From: Anaerolineae bacterium
GTDB taxonomy: Bacteria > Chloroflexota > Anaerolineae > CG2-30-64-16
Assembly: GCA_034434235.1 (NCBI GenBank)
Contig: DAOTZV010000129.1
Location: forward strand, 24,284-88,283
Length of the DNA stretch: 64,000 bases
Direction: 5' to 3'
The notes beneath the pieces were generated by a model. The model had not been told where the DNA came from, made no database searches, and was given only the letters and a program-made list of their open reading frames with translations. Below are positions 37,949 to 64,000 of this stretch, one piece after another (positions within the stretch are counted from its first letter, which is position 1; each line of letters begins with the position of its first letter). The translations under genes and the position numbers were made by a program.

Positions 37949-38135
37949 GAAGTGACTCCTTGCTGTAACGACTGAATGCGGTACTGCGGTTCATATCTAC
38001 CATGCGGCAGAGATTTCGTCAAGAATGCCATCGTAACGATGCAAGGAGTAGCCCGGACATGGCGGCATGATGAGCGCCTATGTCGGTTTGGCTCTGCCCC
38101 TCGGACGTGCTATACTCTGACGGTTAGGGAGATGA

Positions 38136-45263: not shown

Positions 45264-45309
45264 CGTTTTATGTGCCAGGCAACCTCCAAGGTGCCTGGCA
45301 CATAAAACG
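45264..45309. repeat. Palindromic element family A (CGTTTTATGTGCCAGGCA-loop-TGCCTGGCACATAAAACG)
   Basis: 18-bp perfect stem; same core as 23455-23505. Confidence 0.6.
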
Positions 45310-48135: not shown

Positions 48136-48138
48136 GTC

Positions 48139-48339
48139 TCAGTCCCAGATCGTTTGAATCTGACTGTCTCGAATCTTGCCGTCTCGGCTGACCAACGGAA
48201 CACCCAGGTTGACGGCGGTCGCTGCCTGCTGTCCCTGGGTCGTAGCTGCATCAATCTGTCGGTGTGCAGTCGGCGATAGCCGGGCGTCGGCGTGCAACAA
48301 CCAGATTATCGAGTGGGTGTCAAGCACCAACGCGATCAT
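48139..48339 (-). pseudogene. vapC: Truncated VapC-like PIN-domain toxin (66 aa; the N-terminal and C-terminal ends of a ~130-aa VapC)
   Basis: MIALVLDTHSIIWLL (PIN N-terminus with catalytic Asp) joined to ...LVSRDGKIRDSQIQTIW (PIN C-terminus); the middle is missing. Confidence 0.45.
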
Positions 48340-48599
48340 GACGCGTCCTCACGATCCCATGTCGCCCACAACTCGCGCCGCGTTTCATCCAGCTCGGCTG
48401 TAGACGCCACTGAGCCGCCGAGGTGACATAAGACGCCGTATAGCGACCCGGCCGAGGCCTGCGACCGCACGCTGTCTCGACGAATGGGGCGTTTTTGCAG
48501 TCTGAGCAGAGCGTGGTATTCCTCAATAGGCAAGATGACGCCGATCTGTTTGCCTGATGCATCCCTGATGTATTGTCTCGCCAGCCCAACATTGGACAT
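48336..48599 (-). CDS. vapB: Type II antitoxin (VapB/Phd-like)
   Basis: LARQYIRDASGKQIGVILPIEEYHALL is a typical antitoxin N-terminal fold; overlaps vapC by 4 nt; lower-GC region. Confidence 0.5.
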   Translation of the reverse strand: MSNVGLARQYIRDASGKQIGVILPIEEYHALLRLQKRPIRRDSVRSQASAGSLYGVLCHLGGSVASTAELDETRRELWATWDREDAS

Positions 48600-48729
48600 G
48601 ATAGCCTATCCTCCCGGTGTAAACATGCGTCTCTTTGGCTGATATTTACATCGGGGAAATTATACCTTTGGCCGACCCCGAAGTCAATGAAACGCTTGGA
48701 GACAGCGTACACGGGTGTTGTTTCATCGT

Positions 48730-49524
48730 TCACCCACCGAGCTGTTTGAGCACGCGCAGCGCGGCCGCCGCGTCCTCCCGAAAGTTCTCGGTGCGGGCCT
48801 CCACGCTCACCCGCGCCTGATAGCCGATGGCCTTGAGGTTGGCGAAGAACGACAGGAAGCCCGGTTCGACCGTCACGGGATAGGTGCGGGCCGGCGCGCT
48901 CGCGATGTGGATGTGCCGGATCGCATCCCGTGCTTCCAGCACGATGTCGGCCGATTCGCCCTCGAGCACCATGTGGTAGTAGTCAATCAGCAGTTGCACG
49001 GCCGGCCGGTCAACCTCACGCGCCAGCTTCAGTCCCTCGGCACCGGTGAGCACGATATTGGCCTCTTTCCGGTTCAGCGGCTCGATCACGATGGTGATCC
49101 CGTGCTCCTCGGCGATGGGCGCGGCGATGCGCATCGCCTGGACGATCTGCGCCCACGCCCGCTCATACGGAAAGCCCTCCGGCACGTTCTTGGCGCCGGC
49201 GCTGCCGAAGACGATCACCTGTGCGCCCAGCCGGGCCGCGCGGCCGATCGCGCGGCGATCGTAATCCTCTACCTGCGCCCAATCCACGTCCGGACCGGTC
49301 AGGCGCACGGTGCGCGGGTAGAAGACGCAACACGCCTCGCACGGGATGCCGGCCCGATCCAGGCGATCCACGACCGCCTGGAATTCCTCCTCCGGCAGAG
49401 CCGTCAGCGCGGCCAGGTAAAGCTCGACATAATCATAGCCGATCTCCGCGAGCTGCTCGATGTTCGGCGCGCGCGCGCCGTCCGGCGTGCGCGCCAGCGC
49501 GTCTACGCAACAACCGTATTTCAT
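48730..49524 (-). CDS. Sugar phosphate isomerase/epimerase (xylose-isomerase-like TIM barrel)
   Basis: Family-typical blocks DYVELYL, VIEPLNR and LIDYYHM; the start at MKYGCC overlaps the upstream stop (ATGA). Confidence 0.7.
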   Translation of the reverse strand: MKYGCCVDALARTPDGARAPNIEQLAEIGYDYVELYLAALTALPEEEFQAVVDRLDRAGIPCEACCVFYPRTVRLTGPDVDWAQVEDYDRRAIGRAARLGAQVIVFGSAGAKNVPEGFPYERAWAQIVQAMRIAAPIAEEHGITIVIEPLNRKEANIVLTGAEGLKLAREVDRPAVQLLIDYYHMVLEGESADIVLEARDAIRHIHIASAPARTYPVTVEPGFLSFFANLKAIGYQARVSVEARTENFREDAAAALRVLKQLGG

Positions 49525-50420
49525 GATCTTGTCCTCGCTTCCACTCCGGCCAGCTTCTCCAGCACGGTGATGACTGCCGTGTGATCCAGGTCGCCGCCGC
49601 CGGCCGCCAGGAGCGCCGCGAACAGCTCGTGCACCAGGCTCGTCACCGGCAGGGGCACGCCGTAATCGTTGCCCGTCTTCAGGATGATATTCAGGTCCTT
49701 GAAATGAAAGCGCGCCTTGAAGCCGGGCTGAAAGTCGCCCTGGATCACCTTTGGCCCGCGCACGTCGGCCACGCGCGACTGGGCGTAGCCGCCGCTCAGT
49801 ACCTTGTGGATGATCGCCGGATCTACGCCCGCCTTCGCGCCGAGCACCAACGCCTCGGCCATGCCGAGGATGTTCAGCGCCACCTGGATCTGGTTGCACG
49901 CCTTGACGATCTGACCCGCGCCGTTCGGCCCGCAGAGCGTGATCGTCTTGCCGAGCTTCTCGAAGATCGGTCGCATGGCCGCGAAGTCGTCCTCCGCGCC
50001 GCCGACCATGATCGAGAGGGTGGCGTTGATCGCGCCGACCTCGCCGCCGCTGACGGGCGCATCGAGACAGCGCACCCCCTTCGCCGCGAGTGCGTGCGCC
50101 ACCTTGACCGCGGCCGTCGGCGCGATGGTGCTCATATCGGCGTAAAGGACGCCGGGCCGCACGCCTTCGATCAGGCCGTCTGGGCCGAGCGCGACCGCCT
50201 CCACGTCGGGCGAGTCGGGCAACATGGTGATGATCACGTCGCTGCGCGCCGCGACTTCCCGCGGCGAAAAAGCCTCGGCCGCGCCCGCGGCAACCAGCGT
50301 CGCGACCGCCTGGCGGTTCAGGTCATGCACGACCAACGGATAGCCGGCCTTCAGCAGATGGCCGGCCATCGGCCGGCCCATGATCCCCAGTCCGATAAAG
50401 CCGATGGTAAGTGGTGTCAT
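49521..50420 (-). CDS. garR: NAD-dependent 2-hydroxy-3-oxopropionate (tartronate semialdehyde) reductase / 3-hydroxyisobutyrate dehydrogenase family
   Basis: IGFIGLGIMGRPMAGHLLKAG dinucleotide fold, catalytic Lys region (ADMSTIAP...KL), about 299 aa. Confidence 0.8.
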   Translation of the reverse strand: MTPLTIGFIGLGIMGRPMAGHLLKAGYPLVVHDLNRQAVATLVAAGAAEAFSPREVAARSDVIITMLPDSPDVEAVALGPDGLIEGVRPGVLYADMSTIAPTAAVKVAHALAAKGVRCLDAPVSGGEVGAINATLSIMVGGAEDDFAAMRPIFEKLGKTITLCGPNGAGQIVKACNQIQVALNILGMAEALVLGAKAGVDPAIIHKVLSGGYAQSRVADVRGPKVIQGDFQPGFKARFHFKDLNIILKTGNDYGVPLPVTSLVHELFAALLAAGGGDLDHTAVITVLEKLAGVEARTRS

Positions 50421-50444
50421 GGTGAACTCCCTTATGACAAGGTC

Positions 50445-51251
50445 TTACGCACTTTTTGCTCGCCGGCGGTCTGCGACCTCTGTCTGGCCGTCCAAGACGG
50501 CGCTTGCCTCTCGCCACATGATGATCTGCCGCGCAACTTCGACCACCGGCGCCGTCCAGATCTCGTTTCGGCGGCGGGCCAGGTGGCGGCACAGGGCGCG
50601 AAACGCGACCTCCGACAGGGGCAAGCTGCCGTCCCCCACATCGTGAATGGTGAAGATGACCCAGCGGCCCAGCTCGGCCGCCTGTTCCGCCAGGCCGACG
50701 AGGGTCGGCCCGGTCATGTGTTCGACGTTCCACGAGAAGAGGTAGGCCAGGTCGCACGTGGCGGGGTCGTTGTGGCCGAACTCGCCGCGGCCGCGGCCGG
50801 CGATGAAGAGCCGCGCGATCAACGGCACGTAGCTCTGTCGGGTTGGCCCCGCGCCGACATGCTCCTGGTAGCACGGATAGCAGAAGGTGAAGTCGGCCTG
50901 CTCCGGGATCGCCGCGCGCAGGCGACGGGACGCTTCTTGAATGTCCGCTTCCAGCTCGGCGAGGGTCAGCTCTTCCAGGCACGGCCGGCAGTTCGGCAAC
51001 ACCGAGCGCGTGCACGGATGCGCCAGCGTGTGGTTGCCGATCTCGTGGCCGGCGGCCGCCGCCTCGCGCCACGGCGCCAGGTCGGCGAGCCAGTTGTCTC
51101 CGCGCGGGTTCAGGTAGAAGGTGCCGGTCAGGCCGTGCTCGGCCAGGATCGGGATGGCCCGGCCGAGCTGCGACGGCCGGCCGTCGTCGAAGGTGAGCGA
51201 GACGGCACCCCGGCAGCCGCCGGGCCAGGGGGAAGATGCGGCCTCGGACAT
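50445..51251 (-). CDS. Polysaccharide deacetylase (NodB homology domain, carbohydrate esterase family 4-like)
   Basis: LTFDDG and HTLAHP motifs; start at MSEAASS after GAGGTG. The 565-aa track ORF upstream is an out-of-frame overlap with the transaldolase gene. Confidence 0.7.
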   Translation of the reverse strand: MSEAASSPWPGGCRGAVSLTFDDGRPSQLGRAIPILAEHGLTGTFYLNPRGDNWLADLAPWREAAAAGHEIGNHTLAHPCTRSVLPNCRPCLEELTLAELEADIQEASRRLRAAIPEQADFTFCYPCYQEHVGAGPTRQSYVPLIARLFIAGRGRGEFGHNDPATCDLAYLFSWNVEHMTGPTLVGLAEQAAELGRWVIFTIHDVGDGSLPLSEVAFRALCRHLARRRNEIWTAPVVEVARQIIMWREASAVLDGQTEVADRRRAKSA

Positions 51252-51274
51252 GAGCACCTCCGCTGGTGGCTGGA

Positions 51275-52309
51275 TCAGGGTCGGAACGCTTCCATCGGTC
51301 GCCAGCCGGCTTCGAGGAACTGCGTAAGGGTGCGCTGGGTGAGGCCGAAGGCGATGAACTCCTCCGGCCTCATGCCGTCCGGCTCGTAGGAGCGCACGAA
51401 CTCGGGCAGGCGACGCAAGCGCGCGATCACATCGGCGCCGATCGGCTCGTCTATTCCGCGGGCGCGGGGCACGCCATCCTGGAGCAACGTCGCCTGAACC
51501 GACGGGTGGATGGAGAGGATCAGGTCGGCGCCGACCAGGCCGAGCACGTGGTGGTTGCCGCGCAGCGCCGCGATCAGCAGCGTGGCCTCGTAACCGCGGG
51601 CCTTGTAAAGGTGATACGCGCGGCGGGCGGTCGCCAGGCCGGCGAGGCGCAGGTCGGCTTCCTCCACTCCGGCGCGCTGATCGAGCGCCATGTCGCGCAG
51701 GTAGTCGTCCAGCCGGCCGATCATCATGACCGCGAAGCAGCGGCCGGGCCGCACTCCGCCGGCGCGGGCGCGCGCCAGCCCGCGGCGGTAGCGCTCGGCG
51801 ACCGCGATGACCTGCGGCACGGTGAAGCTCACGGTCATGGTGACGGTGATCCCGTTGGCCGCGCATTCCTCCAGCACATCGAGTCCGGCCGCCGTGGCCG
51901 GCAGCTTGACCGCGATGTTGGGCGACCACTGCGCGAAGCGCTGCGCCATGGCGAACATGGCCTCGCGTTGGCCGGCCCATGCCGGGTTCACCTGCGCGCA
52001 GACATAGCCCTGGCGACCGGCCGTCTCCTCGTAGATCGGCAGCAGTTCGGCCGCCGCGTGGCCGACCACGACGCGCATCCACGCCTCGGCGCGGGCCTCC
52101 GGCGAGAGATCGGCCGGCAGGGGGCCGGCCGCCTGCGTCCACCGCTCGGCGCGGCTGCGCAGCGCCAGGCCGGCGAGCACGGGGTTGGTCGTCGCGCCGA
52201 CCGCGCCGTGCGCCAGGCCGCGCGCCAGCTCATCGGGATCGGCCGAGTCGTGCCACCAGGCGGTCGGCGTTTCCTGGGCCAACCATTGCAGATAGCTTGT
52301 TGGGCTCAA
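51275..52309 (-). CDS. tal: Transaldolase-family protein
   Basis: ATTNPVL motif near the N-terminus, Schiff-base Lys region (NIAVKLPAT), about 344 aa. Confidence 0.7.
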   Translation of the reverse strand: MSPTSYLQWLAQETPTAWWHDSADPDELARGLAHGAVGATTNPVLAGLALRSRAERWTQAAGPLPADLSPEARAEAWMRVVVGHAAAELLPIYEETAGRQGYVCAQVNPAWAGQREAMFAMAQRFAQWSPNIAVKLPATAAGLDVLEECAANGITVTMTVSFTVPQVIAVAERYRRGLARARAGGVRPGRCFAVMMIGRLDDYLRDMALDQRAGVEEADLRLAGLATARRAYHLYKARGYEATLLIAALRGNHHVLGLVGADLILSIHPSVQATLLQDGVPRARGIDEPIGADVIARLRRLPEFVRSYEPDGMRPEEFIAFGLTQRTLTQFLEAGWRPMEAFRP

Positions 52310-52316
52310 GGTGTCC

Positions 52317-53513
52317 TCACCCGCCGAACGTCTTGCGCATCTTGTCGCAGTAGTATTGCACGTTTTCCCATTTGGCGTCGGGCGCCAGGCGATGGTCGGG
52401 ACAGGGGATGTAGCCGCCCAGCTCGACCAGCGGCTTCAGGCGCTCGATCTCGGCGTCTATCGCCGCGTAGTCATAGGCGAACACCCGCTTGTCCATCCCG
52501 CCAACCCCTCGCAGCTCGGGGCCGTATTTCGCCCGCCAGGGCGCGATGCTGGCGCCCCAGGTGCCCACTTCGATGGGGAACATGGTGTTGACGCCGTTCT
52601 CGAACCAGGTAGGGATCAGCGCATCTATCTTGCCGTCGCAGTCGAGCGACACGATATGGATGCCGTGCCTGTTCAGCAGGTCGGTGATGCGCCGATAGTG
52701 CGGCCCCACCTTCTGCTTGAACACCTTCGGGCTGACGAGCGGGCCGCTCTTGAAAGCAATGTCCTCCCAGAAGTGGCCGAAGTCCCAGTTGTCGCCGTAG
52801 ACTTCCAGCGCTTTCTCGGTGGCCCAGTAACACAGATCGGCGAAGGTCACGATCATCTCATCGAAGAGCGCCGGGTCATCGGCCTGGAGGTAGGAGAGGT
52901 TGATCATGCCGACGATGTCGCGGATGCGGCCGTAGAGGCTGCCGCACATCAGGCCGAGGGGCCGCTCCCGGTCGGTGCGTTGCACCTCGTCTATGAGATC
53001 GCGGACATGGGTGCGGAAGCGGCGCCGGGGGTCATCATCCTCGCGGCCGACCTGCAGATCGCCGATCACCGGCTCGGGCCTGTAGATGCGCCGCTCGTCG
53101 GGTTGCAGCCGCGGCTTGAAGAGCTCCTCCCATTCCTTGCGGCCCTTGAACAGGTGGTCTATCTCGGTAGGGATGCCGGTCGCATCGTCCTTCTGGAGGA
53201 TGATCACGCCGTCGGCGTTGATCTCCTTGCGGGTGCCATCGGGCAAGACTTCGAGCACCTTCTGCTCGAACGGCGGCAGCAGATTGGTGTAGACGCCGAA
53301 GACGTGATACCAGTTGAAGTCGAAGCCGAGCTTTGCGCCGATGGACAGGTCGGCGGCGTTGCCGTCGGCCCAGGCGGCCGCCTCTTCCCTGGTGATGTGC
53401 CCTTCGCGGGCCCATTTGTCGAGCGTCTCGTTCCAGAAGCCGAAATGGACGACGGGCATGCGGTCGTAAGGCTGATAGTTGAGGATGGCCAGTGCACGTT
53501 CTCGATTGTTCAT
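52317..53513 (-). CDS. Uroporphyrinogen-decarboxylase (URO-D) family protein (MtaA/CmuA-like, non-heme role likely)
   Basis: C-terminal ...GGYIPCPDHRLAPD and the overall ~400-aa architecture of URO-D-like enzymes. Confidence 0.55.
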   Translation of the reverse strand: MNNRERALAILNYQPYDRMPVVHFGFWNETLDKWAREGHITREEAAAWADGNAADLSIGAKLGFDFNWYHVFGVYTNLLPPFEQKVLEVLPDGTRKEINADGVIILQKDDATGIPTEIDHLFKGRKEWEELFKPRLQPDERRIYRPEPVIGDLQVGREDDDPRRRFRTHVRDLIDEVQRTDRERPLGLMCGSLYGRIRDIVGMINLSYLQADDPALFDEMIVTFADLCYWATEKALEVYGDNWDFGHFWEDIAFKSGPLVSPKVFKQKVGPHYRRITDLLNRHGIHIVSLDCDGKIDALIPTWFENGVNTMFPIEVGTWGASIAPWRAKYGPELRGVGGMDKRVFAYDYAAIDAEIERLKPLVELGGYIPCPDHRLAPDAKWENVQYYCDKMRKTFGG

Positions 53514-53528
53514 GGGACTCCTCTCTGA

Positions 53529-56396
53529 TTATGCGCTGCTCCCGCGCAGAGTAAGCAGTCGCGGCAGGCGACGGATGAGCGCAACGGCGATGACCACCAG
53601 CTCCAGGCCGATCATGATGCCTGCAAACGTGATCGCCATTTGCGCGATCAGGTCGTCGGGCACGACCGGCAACAGGGGCGGCAAGGGCGCGTTCTTGACG
53701 CCGGCGATGCGGAAGAAGGGCGCGAACAGATAGGATGCAAAGGTGCCGATGAGCGCGCCGCCGGCCGCGCCGTAGGCCGTGATGGCGATGTATTCCAGCA
53801 GCACCTGGCCCAAGATCTGGCGGCGCTGCAGGCCGATGGCGTGGAGCACGGCAAAGCTGTGCAGGCGTTCGTTGAGGGATGCATAGGTGTTGATCAGCAG
53901 CCCGGCCAACGCCATGGCGGCCGCGGCCAGGAAGCCGACGGTCAGCGTGCCGAACACGCCGACCCGCTCGGTCTTGGCTTGCTCTTCGCGGATGGCGGCG
54001 TTGGCGTCGCGCAACCTGGCGGCTTCGACGCCCATGCCCCGCATGGCCTTCAACACATCCGATCCACTCGCGCCCGGCTTCAGGCGCAACCAGATCTGGT
54101 GTTCGACCGGCCCGCCCGTGAGCGAAAACAGGTAGTCCAGGTTGGTGATGCCGACCGGTTGATCCTCGTAGACCGTCGGAAAGTACTTATAGGTGCCGAC
54201 GATCGTAAAACGGACCTGGTAGGAACCGGCGCTGCCCAGGCTCACTTCGGCCTGGAGCGGATCGCCGATCCGCAACTGGCTGTTGGCCAGCACGGTTTCG
54301 GGGACCAGGATGCCATCGGGCCGCTGCGCGAGCAGGTTCATCAGTCCCCCGAGCGGTTCCTGGGCGAAATCGCGGCGAAACCAGGCCACAGCCGGAAAGA
54401 CCACCCGATCAATGCCGAGCAGCCGGCCGGCCGTGACCCGGCTGCCGCTGCTCAATCTGACGCGCATGGCATAGTTGCCGACGCGCGTGCCGTTGGCAAC
54501 GCCCGGCAGTTGCAGGAAATCTTCCAGGGGCAGGATCCAGGTCGCGTCGGTCGCCAGGCTGCCCTCGGCGCTGGCCGGCACCGGCACGAAGCTCAGGTCG
54601 GCGCCGGCTTCGTAATACATGCGATCCACCAGCCATTGATCGAGGCTGGCGGCCAGGGAGAAGGTATAGATCCCCAGGCCCAGCGAGATCATGATGAGCA
54701 AAAGCGGATTGACATAACTTTGGACCTGTCGGCCCAGTTGGCGGAGCGCCAGGTGCGGCGCGATCCACGGCAGCAGCGCGGCGATCCAATCCAGCGCGCG
54801 CATGATCAGCGGAAAGATGCGCATGACCAGGAGCGCGGCGGTCAGGATGAAGAGGGCCGGCACCAGCACGAGCAGCGGATCGCGAAAGAGGTCGGTGGGC
54901 CGGTCGGTGACGAGCATGGCCAGCGAGCCGTGGCGCTGGAGCTGGTCGTAGGCGTAGGCGGTGGGAAGGAGCAGGAGCAGGTCGAGATAATAGCGATACC
55001 AGAAGGGCGCGCGCACGGGGCGGGCGTGCTCGCGCTCGGCCTCGACCACGCTCTGTTGGCCGGCGCTCCAGGCCGGCACGAGGCGGGCGATCAACGACAC
55101 GAGCAGGGCCGCGATCACCAGCCGGAAGTCGAGTCCCTGCAACGAGATCGGCATCGGCGGCCGCGCGGTGAACTCCAGGAAGCTGACCGTCTGGCCCATC
55201 AGCAACGCGATGCCCGCCCCCATCGCCACGCCCAGCGGCACGGCGACGACGAAGATCAGCAGTTGCTCCACCAGGGTCAGGCCGAGCACCGAGAGCAAGC
55301 TGACCCCGCGGCTCACCAGGATCGCGGTTTCCCGGCGCTGCCAGCGGGCGACGATGGCCGAAGTGAGCACCAGGAAATAGAGCAGAAAGCCGAAGGCCGG
55401 CAGGTTGAAGCCGAGGAGGAGGATCGTCAGGGTCTGGTTGCGGTTGACGAAGTTCTCCAGCGGCTTGATCGGCGAGACGTCCAGCCGGGCGCCGGGCGCG
55501 AACTGCTCGATGACGTTCATGGCGCGCTGAAAGCCCTTCAGATAGGCCGACGAACGGGACGGATTCAGCGCGGTTTCGTCCAGGATGAGCTGCCAGGCGA
55601 CGAAGCGCGAGCCGCCGATCACCACCGGCTGGATGTGCGCCACGTAGTCTTCCTTGCGCACCAGGAAGGTATCGTTCAGTGCCAGCGACGGGTCGGTGAA
55701 CCAGAAGGGGTCTTTGGGGTTGATCGGCTTCCAAAAGCCGCGCACCCGAACGGGGATGATCTGCGACGCCATCGTGACGCCGAGGGAGTAGCGGTCGCCC
55801 ACGTTCATGCCGGCTTTGGCCGCCAGCTCGTGCGGCACCCACGCCTCCAGGATATCGCCGGCCGGCGGGGCATCCATCGGATCGCCGATGATCTCGATGT
55901 GGTCTTCCACTCCTTCGATATAGCCGACGTTGGCATTGCCCAGGTAGCGCGCCTCGCCGGTGCTGCCGCTGTCGCCGGGTTGCGCCTGGAGCATCAGGCC
56001 GCCGCTTTCGATCTCGAAGTGGGCGGCCTTCAGCGGTAGGCCGATCTCGGCCGCCAGCGTTCCTGCCACATGTGCGGTGAGCCGTTCGGCCGTCTGGAGG
56101 GTGACCGGCACGTCGGCGTTGGGCATCATGTAGACGCGCATCGAGAAGGGCGGCCGGCCGGTGGATCTGGTCAGTTCCGCCAGCTCTTGCAGGAGCACGA
56201 CGCGATCTACGGCCTGGGCGAAGAAGCCCGCGCTGGTGACCAGGCCGATCGCGAACGCGACGGCGAGCAGGGCCAGGAAGGACAGCTCGAGGCGATAGAA
56301 GAGGCGCTTGCGCGCCAGATGGATGAGTGCCCACACCATCAGCAGCGGTTGGGCGATCGTAACGAACTCGTGTTTTCGTTCAGGCATTGGAGTCAT
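53529..56396 (-). CDS. Large ABC transporter permease with two FtsX-like domains (MacB/LolE-type, 955 aa)
   Basis: Two sets of four TM helices with large extracytoplasmic loops; no cognate ATPase gene adjacent in the window. Confidence 0.75.
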   Translation of the reverse strand: MTPMPERKHEFVTIAQPLLMVWALIHLARKRLFYRLELSFLALLAVAFAIGLVTSAGFFAQAVDRVVLLQELAELTRSTGRPPFSMRVYMMPNADVPVTLQTAERLTAHVAGTLAAEIGLPLKAAHFEIESGGLMLQAQPGDSGSTGEARYLGNANVGYIEGVEDHIEIIGDPMDAPPAGDILEAWVPHELAAKAGMNVGDRYSLGVTMASQIIPVRVRGFWKPINPKDPFWFTDPSLALNDTFLVRKEDYVAHIQPVVIGGSRFVAWQLILDETALNPSRSSAYLKGFQRAMNVIEQFAPGARLDVSPIKPLENFVNRNQTLTILLLGFNLPAFGFLLYFLVLTSAIVARWQRRETAILVSRGVSLLSVLGLTLVEQLLIFVVAVPLGVAMGAGIALLMGQTVSFLEFTARPPMPISLQGLDFRLVIAALLVSLIARLVPAWSAGQQSVVEAEREHARPVRAPFWYRYYLDLLLLLPTAYAYDQLQRHGSLAMLVTDRPTDLFRDPLLVLVPALFILTAALLVMRIFPLIMRALDWIAALLPWIAPHLALRQLGRQVQSYVNPLLLIMISLGLGIYTFSLAASLDQWLVDRMYYEAGADLSFVPVPASAEGSLATDATWILPLEDFLQLPGVANGTRVGNYAMRVRLSSGSRVTAGRLLGIDRVVFPAVAWFRRDFAQEPLGGLMNLLAQRPDGILVPETVLANSQLRIGDPLQAEVSLGSAGSYQVRFTIVGTYKYFPTVYEDQPVGITNLDYLFSLTGGPVEHQIWLRLKPGASGSDVLKAMRGMGVEAARLRDANAAIREEQAKTERVGVFGTLTVGFLAAAAMALAGLLINTYASLNERLHSFAVLHAIGLQRRQILGQVLLEYIAITAYGAAGGALIGTFASYLFAPFFRIAGVKNAPLPPLLPVVPDDLIAQMAITFAGIMIGLELVVIAVALIRRLPRLLTLRGSSA

Positions 56397-56494
56397 TCAT
56401 CGGATTGCCGTACAGGCGACCGATCGTGAACATGGAATCAAGCTGCTTCATGTCTTACTATAGCAGCATGTAGCTGAATCAGCAAGCTGTGTAT

Positions 56495-56932
56495 TTATGC
56501 GTCATTCATCGGTCGGGCTGATCGGTTGCACAATCCCCGCGCTCGATACACCTCGGCCGCCTCGCGCACGAACGCGGCCGTCTCGTGCGCCTGGAACTCG
56601 TCGGCCAGGCGGGCCGCCAGCGCCAGCATCTCTTCGTATGTGGCACGGCCCGGCCGCAGCGTCTCGTACATGCGCAGCAGCTCGGCGTTGGGGACGGCGG
56701 TCAGCTCGGCCGCGCGGCGCAGGTTGGCCGCCAGCTGCGGAAAGCCGGCCCGCGCGGCGATGGCGGCCTGCGCGCGCAACGCCTCGGCCGTGATGCGCAG
56801 GTCATCGTCGGTCAGTTCGCCCGCGGCCAACCGCTCCAGCGTGATCTCGTCCAGCGGCCGGCCGCTCGCCGCCCGCAACTCTTCACCTGCGTTCTCCGTC
56901 AACGGATAAACACTCTCCATGCTGATCTCCAA
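56495..56932 (-). CDS. pduE: Coenzyme B12-dependent diol/glycerol dehydratase small (gamma) subunit (PduE/DhaB3-like)
   Basis: ...LRMYETLRPGRATYEEMLALAARLADEFQAHETAAFVREAAEVYRARGL aligns with the PduE C-terminus (IYNALRPFRS...AAFVRESAEVYQQR). Confidence 0.75.
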   Translation of the reverse strand: MEISMESVYPLTENAGEELRAASGRPLDEITLERLAAGELTDDDLRITAEALRAQAAIAARAGFPQLAANLRRAAELTAVPNAELLRMYETLRPGRATYEEMLALAARLADEFQAHETAAFVREAAEVYRARGLCNRSARPMNDA

Positions 56933-56968
56933 CCCCCAACCCCCAATCCCTAACCCCTATCCCCCGCC

Positions 56969-59287
56969 TCACTCCGGCTCCCAATCGAACCACAGCTCCT
57001 GCGGCGGCCTGTCGGCGACCTCGTCGGTCTCGCGGCGGTGCAGGAGCGCGGTCTTGACGATCAGGCGCAATCGCGCCCAGTTATCAATCTTCACCCCCAC
57101 CGGCGCCGGCGGGACGCCTTTGGCGTAGCGCGCCGCGTTTCGGCCGATCGCCCGGTACGTCTCCAGCGTCAGGCTCGGCGATTGCGGAAAGAGCTCCAGG
57201 TTGTTGAGCCGGGCCAACCCGCGCTTGTGGATGACGGCCGTGCCGCGCGATTGCAGGCCGATGGCGATGCCCGATCCGCTGAGCTCTGCGCCCGCGTAGC
57301 CGATGGCCGCCAGGTCGGAGCTGCGGTACACCTTCACCACGCGGGCGGTCAACCCTTCGTCGGCCACGCCCGCCAGGATGGCCGCCAACACCGCCTCGTG
57401 CTCCAGCCCCCCGATGGTGCGGGTGAGCGCCGCGTTGAACGCCGGGCCGACCGCGACGATCACTTCGGGTCGGGTGCCCGGCCGGGCCGGACCCAGCTCC
57501 ACCAGCTTCGGCGAGGCCGGGCCGACGTGCGGCGCGACGAATTGGCGCGGGGACTGCGCCTGGCGGATGGCCTGGAGCCGGGCCCAGCGTTCCCCTGCCA
57601 GCCGATAGCCGGTGCCCGGGCCGGTGTAGTCGTTCGGATCGTTGATCGCGCTGAGGACACGGAAGCGACCGGCCCCTCCGGCCGTCTCTGCTGCACGGGG
57701 AGAGGAAGTCCGGCTCTCCCCTCTCCTTGCAGGAGAGGGGGCGGGGGAGAGGTCGAAGATCGCGGCCGGCTGCAGATAGTCCCCCGCCACGCGCTGGCGG
57801 CCCATCTCCAGGATGTTGGCGGCCACATCTGCAAATCCGCGACGGCGCAGCGCGTCGGCCACGGCCAACATGCCCAGATCGCTCGCCAGGAAGCGGTCGG
57901 CCGCGGCCAGGTCGGCCACGGCGTCGCGGTCGGGCATGTCGTCGCTGCTGTGCGCCGTCGTGGCCGCGGCCACCTCGTCGTCGCTGATCGGCGGCAGGCC
58001 CAGCTCCGCGTAGACCGCCTGGATCGCCCGGCCGGCCCGCTCGCGCACCGCCAGGGCCGCCTTTTCGGTGATGGGGACAATCCCGCCGTCCACCTGCATG
58101 TCGCGCTGGAGCACGTTCCAGTCGTCGAAGTCCTCGGCGTCGAAGTTGCCGCCGCCGAACAGATTGTCGCGCTTGGGCACCGCGCTGTAGCCGGAGCAGA
58201 TGAAGTCGGTGCCGGGGATGAACTGGAGCATGAGCTTGGCCGATTTGCGCATGGTCGAGTGCGACGCGAGCGCGTCGTTGCCCGAGGCGCATTCCAGGCC
58301 GAGCATGGAGGCGAGCAGGTTCTCGGCGAGCACCGCGCGCACGCCGGCCGGCAGCGCTTCGGGCAAGGCGATGCATGAGATCGAGCCGTTCTGCACCCCC
58401 TGGCTGCCGGCGCCCTTCGTCACCAGCAGGCAACGCGCCTCCAGGTAGAGCATCGAGCAGCGTTCGGCGTGGCCCATCAGCGCCTCAGAGCCGGTGCCCG
58501 AGGTGAAGCGCACCTTGATTCCGCGCGATGCGTAGGCCGCGGCCAGGAACGCCTTCGACCAGGGGGTGTCGTCGCCGTCCACGAAGGCCCGTTCGGTGCC
58601 GTAGACCGAGAGGGTCTCGGCGTAGGTGGTCAACCCCTTCAGCGCGATCCGCAGGCCCAACGCCTCCTCGACCGCGCATTGGGTGAGGACGCCGCCGCGG
58701 CCCGTTTGCGTGCCGACGAGGACGGCCAGCGCGTTGAGCGGCGCGTTACGGGCCACGCGCACGGTCGTTTCGACCTCCGCGAAGCCGCGCAGGGCCGCCT
58801 CGGCCGCGTCGGCCGCGAGGAGCGCGGGATGCTCCTTCCAGTTGGTCACGTGCGCCTGGTTGGCGGGCGTCCGCCGGACGCGCATCTTGGCGAGGCCGAT
58901 CATCATCTCGAGCACGTTCATGTGGCGGATGATCTCGACCAGCTTGGCCGGGGTGCAACCGGCCGCCAGCCGGCGCACGGCCGCCTGCGGCACGTTGATG
59001 TCGGCCAACATGCGCGCGATCTGGAGGGACGGCGTCGCCATGGCCTCTTCGGCCACGGCCAGATCGAGCGCGTGGTCGGCGATGAAGATATCCAGGCTAT
59101 CGAACTCGGCCCGCGGCTTGCCGTCCATCTCGACCACGCGGCCGGCCTCCAGGCGCAGGGACGGCTGCGGGTCGTAGGGGCTATCGGCGACGATCAGCCC
59201 GGCCTCGGGCCATGGCTCGACGAACGTCTCTTTGTTGATGTCGCGTTCGGCCAGGATGGCGAAACGACGGGATGGGTTGGGTGTCAT
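56969..59287 (-). CDS. pduCD: Fused large (alpha) plus medium (beta) subunits of coenzyme B12-dependent diol/glycerol dehydratase (PduC-PduD fusion), with a ~30-aa low-complexity insertion
   Basis: Residues 1-~560 match PduC/DhaB1 closely, including QAHVTNWKEHP, DGDDTPWSKAFLA, GSQGVQNGSISC and FDDWNVLQRD. Residues ~580-772 match PduD (EVIVAVGPAFNA..., GLTARVVKVYRSSDLAAIGYAGAELSGSGIAIGLQSRGTAVIHKRGL...LELFPQSPSLTLETYRAIGRNAARYAKG). Confidence 0.85.
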   Translation of the reverse strand: MTPNPSRRFAILAERDINKETFVEPWPEAGLIVADSPYDPQPSLRLEAGRVVEMDGKPRAEFDSLDIFIADHALDLAVAEEAMATPSLQIARMLADINVPQAAVRRLAAGCTPAKLVEIIRHMNVLEMMIGLAKMRVRRTPANQAHVTNWKEHPALLAADAAEAALRGFAEVETTVRVARNAPLNALAVLVGTQTGRGGVLTQCAVEEALGLRIALKGLTTYAETLSVYGTERAFVDGDDTPWSKAFLAAAYASRGIKVRFTSGTGSEALMGHAERCSMLYLEARCLLVTKGAGSQGVQNGSISCIALPEALPAGVRAVLAENLLASMLGLECASGNDALASHSTMRKSAKLMLQFIPGTDFICSGYSAVPKRDNLFGGGNFDAEDFDDWNVLQRDMQVDGGIVPITEKAALAVRERAGRAIQAVYAELGLPPISDDEVAAATTAHSSDDMPDRDAVADLAAADRFLASDLGMLAVADALRRRGFADVAANILEMGRQRVAGDYLQPAAIFDLSPAPSPARRGESRTSSPRAAETAGGAGRFRVLSAINDPNDYTGPGTGYRLAGERWARLQAIRQAQSPRQFVAPHVGPASPKLVELGPARPGTRPEVIVAVGPAFNAALTRTIGGLEHEAVLAAILAGVADEGLTARVVKVYRSSDLAAIGYAGAELSGSGIAIGLQSRGTAVIHKRGLARLNNLELFPQSPSLTLETYRAIGRNAARYAKGVPPAPVGVKIDNWARLRLIVKTALLHRRETDEVADRPPQELWFDWEPE
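57670..57752. repeat. In-frame palindromic insertion inside the dehydratase gene (…CTCCCCTCTCC-TTGCA-GGAGAGGGGG…)
   Basis: Inverted repeat read directly; encodes DLSPAPSPARRGESRTSSPRAAETAGGAGR, which is absent from canonical PduC at this position. Confidence 0.55.
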
Positions 59288-59352
59288 GGGTAGTCGAGTA
59301 GTCGAGTAGTCAGATAGTCAAGTAGTCAGATAGTCGGGTAATCGGACAGTCA
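59288..59352. repeat. Tandem octamer array (GAGTAGTC-like x8; mRNA-sense GACTACTC) directly abutting the dehydratase start codon
   Basis: Read directly: GGTAGTC GAGTAGTC GAGTAGTC AGATAGTC AAGTAGTC AGATAGTC GGGTAATC GGACAGTC; no canonical SD between the array and the ATG. Confidence 0.7.
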
Positions 59353-59360
59353 GCGATGCT

Positions 59361-59396
59361 CCAAGCCGGTCTGTGACCGGCGGTCGGGGGTCACCC
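59361..59396. repeat. Family B hairpin element (inverted orientation: GCCGGTC-TGT-GACCGGC + GGTCGGGGG)
   Basis: Its reverse complement closely matches the 26-mer at 6317 and 28209; it lies downstream of the isomerase gene end. Confidence 0.5.
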
Positions 59397-59524
59397 TCTG
59401 AGCCTGAATGCGTGGTCTACTGAGTCTTGTGTGCTTTGGCGGCCCGGACTGCGTTGAGATAGGTCTCTTCGGTCTTGAGCACGTGTTCGAGCACCTGCAT
59501 CGTATCAAGCCTCGGGATTGCTTT

Positions 59525-60277
59525 CTACGCCTTCCCCATCCTGCGCAGGTTGTCCAGGCATCGCGCCACCACTTCCAGCGGCGGGTACTTGTAGCTTTCC
59601 TGCTCGACGATGTACCACTCGGTGCCGCCCTGCGTCTCGCACAGCTCGAAGACGCGTTGCCACGGCACATCCCCTTCGCCCAGGATCGCCAGCGGATCGG
59701 TCGCCGAGTACTCCTTGAGGTGCACGGTGATCGCCCGGCCGGGGTAGCGCGCCAGGTAGGGGATCGGGTCGCCGCCGCCGTGCAGCGCGTTGCCGATGTC
59801 CACCTGCATGATCACCTCTTTGCGGGTGTTGCTGAAGAAGGTATCCCACGGCAGCTCGCCTTCCAGCGGCTGGAATTCGATGGCGTGATTGTGATAGCCG
59901 ACGAGCATGCCGTAGGGCCGGAGCCGCTCGGCGATCTCGTTGAAGATGCCGGCCGTGCGCAGCCACGCGGCGCGCGAGCTGCGATATTCCTCGGCCAGCG
60001 CCGGCACCACCAGGTACTTGTTGCCGAGGATCTGGTTGAACTCGACGGTGCGGAGCAGCTCATCGCCCAAGAGGGTGTCGAGCCGGATGTGCGTGCCGCA
60101 GCACTTCAAGCCCAGGTCGTCGAGCATGGCGCGCAGTTCCCTGGCCGTGCGATCGTAGTAGCCGGCGAACTCAACGCCGACGTAGCCCATCTTCGCCACC
60201 GCGGCCAACGTGCCGGGCAGATCCGCCGCGCACTCGTGGCGAACGGAATAGAGTTGGAGTCCGATTGGGATGGTCAT
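59525..60277 (-). CDS. Sugar phosphate isomerase/epimerase (xylose-isomerase-like TIM barrel)
   Basis: Family-typical blocks IGLQLYSV, GYHNHAIEF and the metal-ligand pattern; SD GGAGG before the ATG. Confidence 0.7.
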   Translation of the reverse strand: MTIPIGLQLYSVRHECAADLPGTLAAVAKMGYVGVEFAGYYDRTARELRAMLDDLGLKCCGTHIRLDTLLGDELLRTVEFNQILGNKYLVVPALAEEYRSSRAAWLRTAGIFNEIAERLRPYGMLVGYHNHAIEFQPLEGELPWDTFFSNTRKEVIMQVDIGNALHGGGDPIPYLARYPGRAITVHLKEYSATDPLAILGEGDVPWQRVFELCETQGGTEWYIVEQESYKYPPLEVVARCLDNLRRMGKA

Positions 60278-60294
60278 GGGATGTCCTCCGATAG

Positions 60295-60365
60295 TCAAAC
60301 GTCAAACGTAAAACGTCAAACGTAAAACGTCAAACGTGAAACGTGAGACGTTTTACGTTTTACTT
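60295..60365. repeat. Tandem heptamer array (C/A)AAACGT x8 followed by two inverted copies (ACGTTTT), occupying the whole intergenic leader of the isomerase gene
   Basis: Read directly: CAAACGT CAAACGT AAAACGT CAAACGT AAAACGT CAAACGT GAAACGT GAGACGT TTTACGT TTTAC; same unit as the array at 41107-41160. Confidence 0.7.
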
Positions 60366-61466
60366 TTCACGATACTCTATCCCCGCCGCCTCGATCTCCG
60401 CAGCCGTCACTTCGCGGCCGAGGTGGCTGGAGAGATAGATGCCCTCGGTGATCAGGGCGGTCTTGAGCGCCAGGCCGGCCGTGTCGAGCAGCGGCACGCG
60501 GCCGAGCTGCGCCCAAACCCAGTGGCGCTGCGAATGGTCGAAGCCGGCCTCGAGCGGGTTGCACTGATGCCAGCGCCAGTCGGCCTGTTTGATGTCGAAC
60601 GTGGCGTTCATCTCCATGTCCGACAGGGTGGTGAAGTAGCCGAACGGCTCGACCCGCAACCCGGCGTGCGAGCCGAACACGCGGTCGCCGTCCGAGCTGT
60701 CGGCGTGGATCGCCCATGCTTCTTCGATGAAGTAGGTGATCCCGCCGGCCAGGCGCACCAGGCCCATGCCGAGCTCCTCGACGTTGTAATTGCCCGAGGC
60801 CCGGCGGTCGGGGTACATGTTGTCGAGCATCTGATAGGTGCGGCCCGAGACGGTCTCGACGGCCGGATTGCCGAGCAACCACATCATGCGCGCGATGTGA
60901 TAGACCGCCATGTCCACCAGCGCGCCGCCGCCGGCCATCTCTTTCTGGACGAAGGCCGGCGTGCCGTAGCCGTCCACCCACGGCCGGCCGCGGCGGCGGT
61001 AATGCGACGACTTGGCGTAGTAGATCTGGCCGAGCTGGCCTTCGTCAATCATCCGTTTGGCCGCGCGCGCCTCCGGCGTGTAGAGCGTGTTGAGCTGGAT
61101 GTGGAGCATCCGGCCGGTGCGCCGGGCGGTGTCGTACATCGCCTTTGCCTCTGAGTATACCCAAGACATCGGCTTTTCGCAATAGACGTTCTTGCCCGCC
61201 TCCAGCGCGGCGATGGTCACCGCCGCGTGCAATCGGTTGTGCAACGCCACGTCTACCGACTGGATGTCGTCTCGTCGGAGCAGCTCCCGGTAGTCGCTGT
61301 AAACCGCCACCTCCGGGCCAATGGCCTGGGCCACCCGCCGCGCTTCGTCCTCGCGCAGGTCGCACACGGCCACGATCTCGGCTTCGGGGACCTCTTTGTA
61401 GCGCTCGACGTGGACCTTGCCGATCTGGCCCACGCCGATGATGCCGATGCGGACTTTGTCGGTCAT
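60360..61466 (-). CDS. Gfo/Idh/MocA-family NAD(P)-dependent oxidoreductase
   Basis: N-terminal Rossmann fold MTDKVRIGIIGVGQIGKVHVERY, EKP motif (YCEKPMS), 368 aa. Confidence 0.8.
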   Translation of the reverse strand: MTDKVRIGIIGVGQIGKVHVERYKEVPEAEIVAVCDLREDEARRVAQAIGPEVAVYSDYRELLRRDDIQSVDVALHNRLHAAVTIAALEAGKNVYCEKPMSWVYSEAKAMYDTARRTGRMLHIQLNTLYTPEARAAKRMIDEGQLGQIYYAKSSHYRRRGRPWVDGYGTPAFVQKEMAGGGALVDMAVYHIARMMWLLGNPAVETVSGRTYQMLDNMYPDRRASGNYNVEELGMGLVRLAGGITYFIEEAWAIHADSSDGDRVFGSHAGLRVEPFGYFTTLSDMEMNATFDIKQADWRWHQCNPLEAGFDHSQRHWVWAQLGRVPLLDTAGLALKTALITEGIYLSSHLGREVTAAEIEAAGIEYREK

Positions 61467-63337
61467 GGTGCACTCCTTGGGGAGTAGATATTGGGGTATT
61501 GGATCTTGGACGCGGTCGGTTCCGCGAAACCCATCGTGTACAGGTGGTAATATGCCCCGCGGCGCGCCAGCAGCTCCTGATGCGTCCCCTGCTCGATGAT
61601 CCGACCATGGGCGAGCACCACGATCTGGTCGGCGCGGACGATGGTGCTGAGGCGGTGCGCGATGACGAACGCGGTGCGCCCCTCCAGCAGGCGATCCATC
61701 GCCTCCTGAATGACCTTCTCGGTCTGCGTGTCAATGCTCGACGTGGCCTCGTCGAGCACGAGGATGCGCGGGTCGGCCAGGAGCGCGCGGGCGAACGCCA
61801 GCAGTTGTCGCTGGCCCACCGACAGGCTGGCGCCCCCCTCCTCCACCATCGTCTGGTAGCCGAAGGGCAGCGCCTCGATGAACTCGTGCGCGCCGATCGC
61901 CCGCGCGGCCGCGACGATCTCATCGTCGCTCGCGTCGAGCCGGCCGTAGCGAATGTTGTCGGCTACGGTGCCGCGGAAGAGGAACGTCTCCTGGAGCACG
62001 ATCCCCATCTGCCGGCGCAAAGAGGAGAGCTCCACGTCGCGCACGTCATAGCCGTCAATGCGCACGCTGCCGGCCTTCACGTCATACGAACGGTTCAGCA
62101 GCTTGACCAGCGTGCTCTTGCCCGAACCGGTCGCGCCGACCAGGGCGATGAGCTGGCCGGGCCGCACGTGCAGATTGATGTCGTGCAGAACGGGAAGATC
62201 GGGTTCGTAGTGGAAATACACGTGATCGTAGATCACCTCGCCCCGGATCGGCGGCATCTCCGGCGCGCCGGGCTTGCTCTCGATCTCGATCGGCCGATCG
62301 AGCAGGCCGAAGATGCGCTCGCCGGCCGTCATCGCCTGTTGCAGCGTGTTGTAGCGCTCGGCCAGATCGCGAATCGGGTCGAAGAAGCGACCGATGTACA
62401 TCACGAACGCCACGAGCACGCCGGGGGTGAAGACGCTACCGCCCACGGCCAGCGCGCCGCCGAAGCCGATCACCAGCGCCACCGCCAGCGTGCCGAGGAA
62501 ATCCACGGCCGGGAAAAACATGGCCGAGAGCCGCGCCGCGCGCTGTTGCGCCCGGTTGAAGCGATAGTTGATCTGGTTGACGAACTTCTCCAGGTTCAGC
62601 TTCTCCCGCGTGAACGCCTGCACCACGCGCACGCCCTGGATGTTCTCCTCGATGTAGCCCAGCATCCGTCCGTTGTAATAGCGCACGCGACGCCAGTTGT
62701 CGCGTGCCCGCGCCCGCCACATGGCCGTCAACAGCGCCATGATCGGCAGCACCGCGAAGGTGATGAGCGACAGCCGCCAGTCCAGCGCCAGCATCACGAT
62801 CACGATCCCGATCAACGTGAAGAGGTCGGACGCAGTGCCGACGATGGCCCAGGTGACCAGCTCCTGCAGCGCGTTGATGTCGGAGGTCATGCGCGACATC
62901 AGGATGCCGACGTCGGCCTTGTCGAAGAAGCTCATGGACTGGCGCTGGAACTTCTCGAACAGGTCGCGGCGCACGCCGTAGATGCTGGACTGTCCGGCCT
63001 CGGCCACGGCCGCCACCTGGGCCGCACGCGCGATCCAGCCGACCAGTTGTGCCAGGAGGAAGACGGCGATCAGCCCGCGGAGCAGTCCCATGTCGCCGGC
63101 CGGGATGGCGTTGTCGAGGGTCAGCTTGATGATGTAGGGGCCGGCGAGAGATGTGGCCGTGATGACGCCCATCAGCAGCAGCGCGATGAGCATCTGCCGG
63201 CCGTAGGGCCGCACGTAGCGGAACAGCCGGCCGACGATGCGGCGGTCGTAGCCCCGAAACTGGAGGTCTTCGGGGAGGTCGAATTCGACCTGGCCTTCCT
63301 TGAAGAGGCTGCGGAAACGTTGGATGAGCGCGGCCAT
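61463..63337 (-). CDS. ABC exporter, fused permease plus ATP-binding domains (type I exporter; second subunit of a likely heterodimer)
   Basis: Six-TM domain, then Walker A GATGSGKST, signature LSVGQRQLLAFARAL and Walker B ILVLDEATSSID; start at MAALIQRF. Confidence 0.85.
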   Translation of the reverse strand: MAALIQRFRSLFKEGQVEFDLPEDLQFRGYDRRIVGRLFRYVRPYGRQMLIALLLMGVITATSLAGPYIIKLTLDNAIPAGDMGLLRGLIAVFLLAQLVGWIARAAQVAAVAEAGQSSIYGVRRDLFEKFQRQSMSFFDKADVGILMSRMTSDINALQELVTWAIVGTASDLFTLIGIVIVMLALDWRLSLITFAVLPIMALLTAMWRARARDNWRRVRYYNGRMLGYIEENIQGVRVVQAFTREKLNLEKFVNQINYRFNRAQQRAARLSAMFFPAVDFLGTLAVALVIGFGGALAVGGSVFTPGVLVAFVMYIGRFFDPIRDLAERYNTLQQAMTAGERIFGLLDRPIEIESKPGAPEMPPIRGEVIYDHVYFHYEPDLPVLHDINLHVRPGQLIALVGATGSGKSTLVKLLNRSYDVKAGSVRIDGYDVRDVELSSLRRQMGIVLQETFLFRGTVADNIRYGRLDASDDEIVAAARAIGAHEFIEALPFGYQTMVEEGGASLSVGQRQLLAFARALLADPRILVLDEATSSIDTQTEKVIQEAMDRLLEGRTAFVIAHRLSTIVRADQIVVLAHGRIIEQGTHQELLARRGAYYHLYTMGFAEPTASKIQYPNIYSPRSAP

Positions 63338-63338
63338 G

Positions 63339-64000
<662 letters not shown>

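Follow-up and report, generated by a model that had tools for sequence, protein, structure and literature searches.

A translated triplex-type repeat in a diol/glycerol dehydratase gene of Chloroflexota and its recurrent insertion site

The closest described relatives of the element reported here are the G/C-rich repeats known since the 1990s as BoxC, PIT or triplex motifs (TM), whose architecture is described in Holder et al. 2015 (PMC4666352), citing Bachellier (1990s) and Hoyne/Maher (2000). In Escherichia coli they have the form CCCTCTCCC-loop-GGGAGAGGG-TTA/CCG-GGGTGAGGG, and the strict TMECO consensus is CCCTCNCCC-N3-6-GGGNGAGGG-N3-GGGNGAGGG. All E. coli copies are reported to lie between genes, five times as an inverted pair of two motifs, and neither promoter or terminator activity nor a tie to known mobile elements was found; the surroundings of the motif are markedly unstable, including small deletions that preserve the hairpin potential (PMC4666352). 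An isolated strand forms a triplex in vitro, but none was detected in duplex DNA or in vivo, and G/C-rich motifs of the BoxC/TM kind occur in more than 260 genomes, with high numbers in cyanobacteria (PMC4666352). Here we describe a perfect copy of a motif of this kind in a stretch of 64,000 nt from an Anaerolineae bacterium (contig DAOTZV010000129.1; the whole stretch is called the window in the following). In contrast to the strictly intergenic copies of E. coli, it is translated in frame inside an enzyme, in the catalytic subunit of a B12-dependent diol/glycerol dehydratase. It resembles BoxC/TM in its three-block architecture with loops of 3 nt, stems of 9-10 nt and near-identical arms, in the occurrence of inverted pairs, in its presence in cyanobacteria and many other bacteria, and in the association with local sequence instability and small deletions. 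A further difference from the TM literature lies in the host, as Chloroflexota are not mentioned in the main text of PMC4666352.

A translated context is known for the Rickettsia palindromic elements (RPEs), for which we rely on the account in a review on MITEs (miniature transposable elements with inverted repeats; PMC10969869, citing Ogata et al.); in the pertinent sections of the literature cited here it is not reported for triplex motifs or for Chloroflexota. According to that account, RPEs share with the present element that palindromic DNA stands in frame in unrelated metabolic genes, is translated and is proposed to be compatible with fold and function of the protein. They differ in their length of about 150 bp, their restriction to Rickettsia, their presumably unrelated sequence and the conserved peptide they encode, and their description in PMC10969869 includes neither a triplex-type third arm nor a multi-family hotspot at one codon. 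RPEs may thus serve as a functional analogy only. MITEs, as portrayed in the same review, are likewise small, have a strong hairpin potential and occasionally become fused in frame to host open reading frames (ORFs). REPINs, doublets of REP sequences (repetitive, extragenic and palindromic) mobilised by REP-associated tyrosine transposases (RAYTs), resemble the element in that two inverted palindromic units give a hairpin of about 90-100 bp, and in being dispersed and non-autonomous, as outlined in the relevant parts of Bertels and Rainey 2011 (PMC3116915) and Di Nocera et al. 2013 (PMC3733652). REPs are described as extragenic, however, and a third mirror arm does not belong to their features as given in these parts.

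A three-armed motif in the coding sequence

The original prediction, made from the letters of the window, had placed a hairpin-forming palindrome at 57670-57752, inserted in frame in the large-subunit region of the dehydratase gene. The palindrome is real and these coordinates were right within 1-2 nt. On the + strand, 57718-57727 (CCCCTCTCCT), 57728-57730 (TGC) and 57731-57740 (AGGAGAGGGG) form a perfect inverted repeat with a 10-bp stem and a 3-nt loop, which can alternatively be folded, as in the original prediction, as a 9-bp stem with a 5-nt loop. The pattern CCTCTCC-N(1-12)-GGAGAGG has one match in the window, where 0.01 are expected, and the 23-mer of the palindrome had no match in 100 shuffles. 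Separated by a GCG spacer there follows a third arm at 57744-57753 (GGGGAGAGGT), the exact mirror of the purine (G) arm. This arm had been missed in the original prediction; the palindrome constitutes only two arms of a three-armed motif.

The window and shuffled versions of it were scanned with our own ITxF-like script, written after the published rules (Holder et al. 2015, PMC4666352). These rules ask for three consecutive blocks on one strand, namely a pyrimidine arm, a purine arm that complements it by Watson-Crick pairing and a reverse-Hoogsteen mirror arm, with G.G, A.A or T.A triads in the third arm, stems of 6-15 nt, at most one mismatch and loops of 1-6 nt. The segment 57718-57753 was found as a class II intrastrand-triplex motif with 10 triads, no mismatch and loops of 3 and 3 nt. 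Apart from it the window contained one weak match, and 20 shuffles yielded two in total at a stem of at least 7. The palindrome thus belongs to a non-random, G/C-rich class II triplex motif of the BoxC/PIT/"TM" kind, a triplex fold of the strand being predicted from base-triad compatibility. The TMECO consensus was not found: the arms CCCTCTCCT / AGGAGAGGG / GGGAGAGGT are each one base off (CCCTCTCCT compared with CCCTCNCCC). Judged by its sequence, the window motif is a variant of the triplex class and not the E. coli subtype.

The motif is flanked by CTCT on one side and CGAA on the other, and its last 2 nt overlap the codon of the conserved Asp512. The purine-type motif is on the template strand of the dehydratase gene; the sense strand and the mRNA carry the C-rich complement ACCTCTCCCC-CGC-CCCCTCTCCT-GCA-AGGAGAGGGG, which would be a pyrimidine-type motif. 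According to Holder et al., the purine-type motif cannot form in RNA, and pyrimidine-type motifs are more stable in acidic conditions, which are usually not met in cells (PMC4666352). Taken as a whole, the window insert has no significant fold (RNA z -1.55, DNA z -0.9); structure is confined to the 36-nt motif. When aligned with the insert of an orthologous gene (P0002), the rest of the window insert corresponds to a second, inverted hairpin unit, CCCCCTTCCCT-TGC-AGGGAAGGGGG plus GGGAGGTCAGGTC, of which it is the decayed counterpart (Table 1). An extra copy of GGGGAGAGG at 57697-57705 is able to pair with 57714-57721. The inverted doublet typical of REPs and REPINs is present in the inserts of the orthologs P0002 and P0004, whereas the second unit is decayed in the window copy; a GTAG/CTAC or CGTC/GACG tag, as in REPs, abuts neither end of the palindrome.

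The element is not confined to this gene. A scan for CCCTCTCCT-NNN-AGGAGAGGG with one genome per species gave at least 120 loci. Among the matches listed, the hairpin comes from cyanobacteria, Chloroflexota, Acinetobacter, Bosea, Ignavibacteria, Armatimonadota, bacteria of the candidate phyla radiation and others; the third arm GG[TA]GAGG follows within about 20 nt in 115 of 128 hairpin copies from other phyla, compared with 0.3% of control windows. Of 132 copies from other phyla, 16 are located in ORFs that stay open for at least 100 codons to either side. Pfam supports in-ORF copies in a P-type ATPase (L034), an NB-ARC protein (L124), a PatG-like protease (L051) and a glutamyl-tRNA synthetase (GluRS). 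Elements of Tolypothrix, Plectonema and another metagenome-assembled genome (MAG) are colinear with the two-unit element present in P0002 and the window, the identity with the cyanobacterial ones being about 70% over about 90 nt, in the order ACCTC[AT]CCCC; CCCCTCTCCT-GCA-AGGAGAGGGG; spacer; CTCCCCCTTCCCT-loop-AGGGAAGGGGG; GGGGGGTTAGGTC. The terminal inverted sequences of the two-unit element, ACCTC[AT]CCCC ... GGGG[TA]GAGGT, recall a MITE, but what would be the terminal inverted repeats are here the third arms of two triplex units. In the GluRS of Ignavibacteria bacterium UBA2360 (L098:6731-7999, - strand) the same triplex-type element is likewise translated in frame (PPLSSQERGQGGEV...), opposite a 15-residue gap in PDB 6brl_A.

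Site of the insert in the protein and its orthologs

As had been predicted, the host ORF (56969-59287) reads through the palindrome region without a stop. Its product had been taken for PduC; the large subunit was recognised correctly, but the protein is in fact a fusion of large and medium subunits and not PduC alone, with PF02286 (Dehydratase_LU) at aa 6-512 (E 2e-257) and PF02288 (Dehydratase_MU) at aa 615-727. Its best PDB matches are 9via_B, 1iwp_A and 1dio_A. On sequence grounds the host protein is a B12-dependent diol/glycerol dehydratase with large, medium and small subunit domains. Residues Q144, H146, E173, E224, Q299, D338 and S365 (query numbering) are invariant in 55 orthologs. 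With an offset of +3 they correspond to positions 141, 143, 170, 221, 296, 335 and 362 of 1dio_A, which we take to be those that bind Ca or act in catalysis in the Klebsiella oxytoca enzyme. In the codons flanking the insert site, differences are mostly found at third positions. Three other assemblies hold an identical protein, with 4-7 substitutions relative to the window gene elsewhere and none in the insert. The invariant residues, the evolution at third positions, the adjacent small-subunit gene and the identity of the insert in four assemblies suggest that the host gene is still functional.

The insert peptide has 28 residues, is low-complexity and rich in Pro, Ser, Arg and Gly, and directly precedes RFRVLSAINDPNDY. 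In the otherwise continuous alignment with the glycerol dehydratase 9via_B it stands opposite a gap, located between residues 510 and 512 of that chain; the match to 1dio_A ends one residue earlier, at residue 508. The claim that canonical enzymes have no residues at this position therefore agrees with the gap in the solved structures and with the absence of the insert from most orthologs. A first AlphaFold run with 55 close homologs reached a pLDDT of 60, was unusable and was replaced by a second run (AF2) with a more diverse alignment, including representatives of 50%-identity clusters. The second model has a mean pLDDT of 90.4 and a pTM of 0.88. Its only internal stretch with a pLDDT below 50 is 528-537, inside the insert, which is predicted to bridge strands 510-514 and 541-545 in place of a tight beta-hairpin turn. 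A mapping onto the known structure, proposed earlier as a check, thus leads to such a turn in the model. Superposition on the solved alpha chains (1dio_A, 1iwp_A) gives a TM-score of 0.98 and an rmsd of 1.3-1.9 Å, on solved beta chains TM-scores of 0.90-0.95. For the alpha chains it comprises 577-580 alignment columns for chains of 550-555 residues, which fits the insert being the only large extra segment. In the model, the insert would be a disordered loop close to the C-terminus of the alpha part, standing out from a fold that otherwise resembles the crystal structures.

Fused dehydratases from Chloroflexota, namely Litorilinea and MAGs of Caldilineaceae, are the closest homologs; they typically have 743-745 aa, and the empty site in them consists of the five residues D-R-D-F-R. 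Inserts were found in 17 of the 115 readable sequences among the best 120 protein matches and in 13 of 72 readable metagenome loci, leaving 98 and 59, respectively, without one. Between the flanking conserved motifs there are 13-68 aa in the sequences with an insert and 5 aa where the site is empty. Representatives of the wider family have no insert at the site, and it is also empty in ortholog P0012, which is 86% identical. Besides one 1-aa indel, this is the only internal indel site in 46 aligned orthologs.

At least 12 mutually unrelated classes of inserts occupy this codon position, four of which are recognisable palindromic elements (Table 1). The insert of P0002 has two hairpins and an outer stem (DNA-fold z -3.5). 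The same three-armed architecture exists in P0002 and P0013, with arms that differ between the genes, and palindromic symmetry is retained in the homologous segments of P0002, P0013 and P0004, with stems of 9, 12 and 18 bp; homologous segments lacking such symmetry, which would have refuted the original prediction, were thus not observed. The class A copies are alike, in all four cases, in their orientation, their frame and the junction on the left, GAC-CTC-[AT]CC, which fits one ancestral insertion of this class. The encoded insert peptide is not conserved between orthologs. The L162 element, from a more distant ortholog with a 68-aa insert, is a different, larger repeat family; around its three hairpins there is an outer stem of some 15 bp, and its DNA fold has -58 kcal/mol. 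No structure is detectable in the inserts of P0003 and P0009 (z +1.0 and +1.2), so that the DNA-fold z values at the site extend from -11.6 and -6.6 for fresh elements over -0.9 in the window to +1.2 for unstructured ones. A derivation of the P0007 and P0003 inserts from the window-type element was considered but found no support, as alignment scores were no better than those of shuffles; a link by decay between these two and the fresh inserts would thus be conjectural.

In a bootstrapped tree from gap-free columns, sister pairs at 100% bootstrap mix the classes (P0004 with A and P0010 with B; P0013 with A and P0014 with B). P0013 and P0014 have a DNA identity of 94-96% over 600 nt on each side, yet their inserts are unrelated. 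Their alleles are present in the metagenomes ERZ27250192 and JGI 3300020603, and the species of the window in ERZ27296006, 3300010938 and 3300027515. The similarity ends exactly at ...ATCTTTCAG and restarts at GTCCTCAG..., pointing either to a recent exchange of elements or to short allelic segments that recombine between lineages. The P0013 insert (L005:2500-2670) contains two copies of the left arm ([AG]ACCTCACCCCCCTG) about 21 nt apart (CCATCTTCTACTGCCAGTCAC), with a spacer loosely similar to the type-B palindrome of its sister P0014, and may represent a nested insertion or a partial duplication. The perfect 16-bp type-B palindromes of L139 and L140 differ by a compensatory pair, GCCGGGC/GCCCGGC compared with GCCAGGC/GCCTGGC, hence perfect symmetry was kept despite divergence. 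Taken together, the site is a near-sole indel position with very recent turnover, and this hotspot is the part most worth following.

Table 1. Coordinates of the features in the window and insert classes at the dehydratase site
Feature	Location	Strand	Evidence or properties
In-frame insert, 84 nt, aa 513-540 (LSPAPSPARRGESRTSSPRAAETAGGAG)	57668-57751	-	gap in solved structures and ortholog comparison
Intact class II intrastrand-triplex motif (TM/BoxC/PIT type)	57718-57753	+	antisense strand of dehydratase gene
Decayed second half of element	57668-57717	-	alignment with P0002 insert
Fused large (alpha) and medium (beta) subunit, B12-dependent diol/glycerol dehydratase, 772 aa	56969-59287	-	Pfam and PDB matches
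Dehydratase small (gamma) subunit gene, directly downstream	56495-56932	-	PF02287, E 5.8e-43
Class A, triplex-type	window, P0002, P0013, P0004		stems 10, 9+11, 12, 18 bp; DNA-fold z -0.9 (window) to -6.6 (P0004)
Class B	P0014, P0010, L139, L186		33-nt palindrome ACGTGCCAGGCACTTC-C-GAAGTGCCTGGCACGT; z -6.1 perfect copy, -2.2 decaying copy
Class C, imperfect palindrome	P0005, P0008, P0011, L142		z -0.5 to -1.6
Class L162	L162:301-1254 (Ga0233425_10000403)		126-nt three-hairpin element; z -11.6
C6-AANNTT-G6 hairpins	35909-35926; 42606-42623; 42635-42652; 42675-42692		four compared with 0.04 expected, all inside real ORFs
GTGCCAGGCAC / GTGCCTGGCAC hairpins	661-689; 23468-23496; 24419-24429; 45264-45309		10 matches compared with 2.3 expected

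Origin and turnover of the insert

The identity of the motif, its insertion relative to the orthologs, the location in a loop, the homology across phyla, the hotspot and the turnover are established. As their explanation we consider it likely that the insert consists of repeat DNA, selfish or neutral, which a permissive loop tolerates and which is by now half decayed. The original element would have been a non-coding dispersed repeat of about 85-90 bp with two inverted units, each a G/C-rich hairpin with a mirror third arm, which became inserted in frame in the dehydratase gene of a Caldilineae-like Chloroflexota bacterium, at the turn of the beta-hairpin. Of its two units, the one at 57718-57753 is still perfect and the other has decayed. 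With a length of 84 nt and no stop in any of the six frames, the insert would simply have been translated. The 28-residue loop is probably tolerated and not used, a longer beta-hairpin turn leaving the enzyme undisturbed. The repeated hits at the site may result from a selection filter, this being the near-sole indel-tolerant place in the protein; as a second cause, a resident hairpin/triplex element may make the spot fragile. The elements may have been exchanged when replication stalled, through slippage and template switching or through gene conversion with copies elsewhere in the genome, a stalling/slippage-type route having been proposed for TM loci in E. coli (PMC4666352). After insertion the elements would decay into ordinary variable loop sequence, as the range from perfect to structureless inserts suggests.

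Several observations weigh against this explanation. The term insertion is derived from comparison and not from a mechanism, because no target-site duplication or mobilising enzyme was identified. Comparing filled with empty sites, we found no convincing target-site duplication at the junctions, and no transposase or RAYT was among the Pfam-scanned neighbouring genes, where no search was aimed at transposases. No parent insertion sequence, as known for MITEs, was recognised either, again with no search aimed at one. Within the 64 kb of the window, neither the palindrome nor its arm has a further copy. A general explanation by which triplex motifs would be free of stops by their nature was rejected: it holds for the window copy but not for the family average, and the element is not intrinsically "ORF-friendly", because triplex motifs have 3.9 open frames on average compared with 3.8 for random 38-mers. 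Furthermore, an insert of one kind or another is present in almost all members of the closest clade, which fits an old insertion with turnover but also a benefit of the longer loop. Finally, the compensatory A:T to G:C change and the perfect stems could speak for selection on structure rather than neutrality.

One may ask whether the clustering of inserts reflects targeting instead of tolerance, with a site-specific process that repeatedly brings hairpin elements to this codon. An HUH/RAYT-like or IS200-type single-strand transposase, or a recognition of the resident hairpin linked to the replication fork, are candidates for it. That at least four palindromic families and other inserts meet at one codon position, with no indels elsewhere in about 745 aa, would be expected from such a process, as would the recent replacement between genes of 94-96% identity and the common orientation, frame and left junction of the class A copies, although the last can equally be explained by common descent and recombination. 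Up to 4 nt (GACC) of the sequence usual at empty sites, GAC CGC, recur where the element begins on the left, but empty sites were found to contain neither an intrinsic palindrome nor a conserved target beyond codon constraints. Moreover, neither target-site duplications nor a transposase were seen, the latter within the limits given above, and an essential enzyme would show survivors at tolerant sites only. We therefore hold targeted integration to be unlikely.

The wider idea that the codon position is a true integration hotspot, where hairpin/triplex families are delivered and replaced by a structure-directed process, is doubtful as well, if marginally less so; this could be accomplished by template switching where a replication fork has stalled, or by a novel single-strand transposase for which the resident element is the target. 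If it were true, a conserved, otherwise indel-free gene would provide a natural trap with clean before/after junctions, the decades-old question of how BoxC/triplex-motif repeats spread would become directly testable, and selfish hairpin DNA would be a regular source of new protein loops outside Rickettsia.

Distinctly less probable is a functional nucleic-acid structure kept by selection, for instance an mRNA hairpin at which translation would pause once the alpha core is made and before the C-terminal segment, or a DNA structure that affects transcription. Stems that stay perfect in several orthologs despite sequence differences, the compensatory pair in the type-B palindrome and the inserts in nearly all members of the closest clade are what one would expect from it. 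However, template switching in quasi-palindromes can restore perfect stems without selection, and such stems could equally come from re-copying of other genomic copies. The site also accommodates unrelated and partly structureless sequences, P0012 and about 85% of the relatives are empty, the second hairpin of the window has decayed, and the RNA z of the whole insert is as weak as stated above. The E. coli motifs, too, are without promoter or terminator activity (PMC4666352). An ordinary low-complexity loop expanded by slippage, with a chance palindrome, or an assembly artefact is very improbable: the peptide is of low complexity and short G/C palindromes are common in this genome of 66% G+C (32 hairpins with a stem of at least 9 bp listed in the window, some nested at one locus, compared with 3-12 in shuffles), but chance would give only about 0.1 three-armed motifs per window even with a stem of 7, colinear cyanobacterial elements are about 70% identical over about 90 nt, and the identity of the insert in independent assemblies that differ elsewhere in the gene rules out the artefact.

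With tolerated repeat DNA as the preferred explanation, the locus shows in a concrete instance how repeat DNA gives rise to protein loops outside Rickettsia, and it unites at a single defined site elements in all states from fresh to decayed. Near-identical genes whose alleles are filled, empty or replaced could be mined for the mechanism of insertion. For annotation it carries a warning, as peptides such as PSPARRGE, PLLAGEG and VPGTSEVPGTS are repeat-derived and not functional motifs.

Neighbouring genes and further hairpins in the window

Among the neighbouring genes scanned (46210-63508) there were no genes for a dehydratase reactivase or microcompartment shell proteins. They encode an AP_endonuc_2 (xylose-isomerase-like) protein, a GFO/IDH/MocA oxidoreductase, an ABC transporter and an FtsX-type permease, and furthermore a 3-hydroxyisobutyrate-dehydrogenase-like protein and sugar-active enzymes. 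The kinds of these neighbours and the lack of reactivase and shell genes among them suggest a role of the dehydratase in sugar or deoxy-sugar catabolism rather than in a classical pdu operon. Rfam has no family for the element: none reached the gathering threshold in the window, and at other loci the elements matched only sub-threshold microRNA-hairpin look-alikes.

AANNTT elements inside ORFs, already noticed in the original prediction, are indeed present as four C6-AANNTT-G6 hairpins. One is situated between domains of a GH38 alpha-mannosidase (34847-37990, - strand), and three are clustered in a PMT_2 glycosyltransferase (41169-43256, - strand), whose Pfam match ends shortly ahead of them, at profile position 93/160. 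In some of the hairpins another G6 run comes next (G6-CCA-G6), a weak triplex-type arrangement. Together with the palindrome these elements had been read as a general tendency of this genome towards palindromic mini-insertions inside ORFs. Such insertions do occur, but they are a property of these repeat families, and of this particular codon position, across Chloroflexota and not specific to the genome, of which the 64 kb of the window were the only basis for the claim. The GTGCCAGGCAC / GTGCCTGGCAC hairpins share their core with the 33-nt type-B palindrome at the dehydratase site (P0014, P0010, L139, L186). The one at 45264-45309 has an 18-bp stem and is located between called ORFs.

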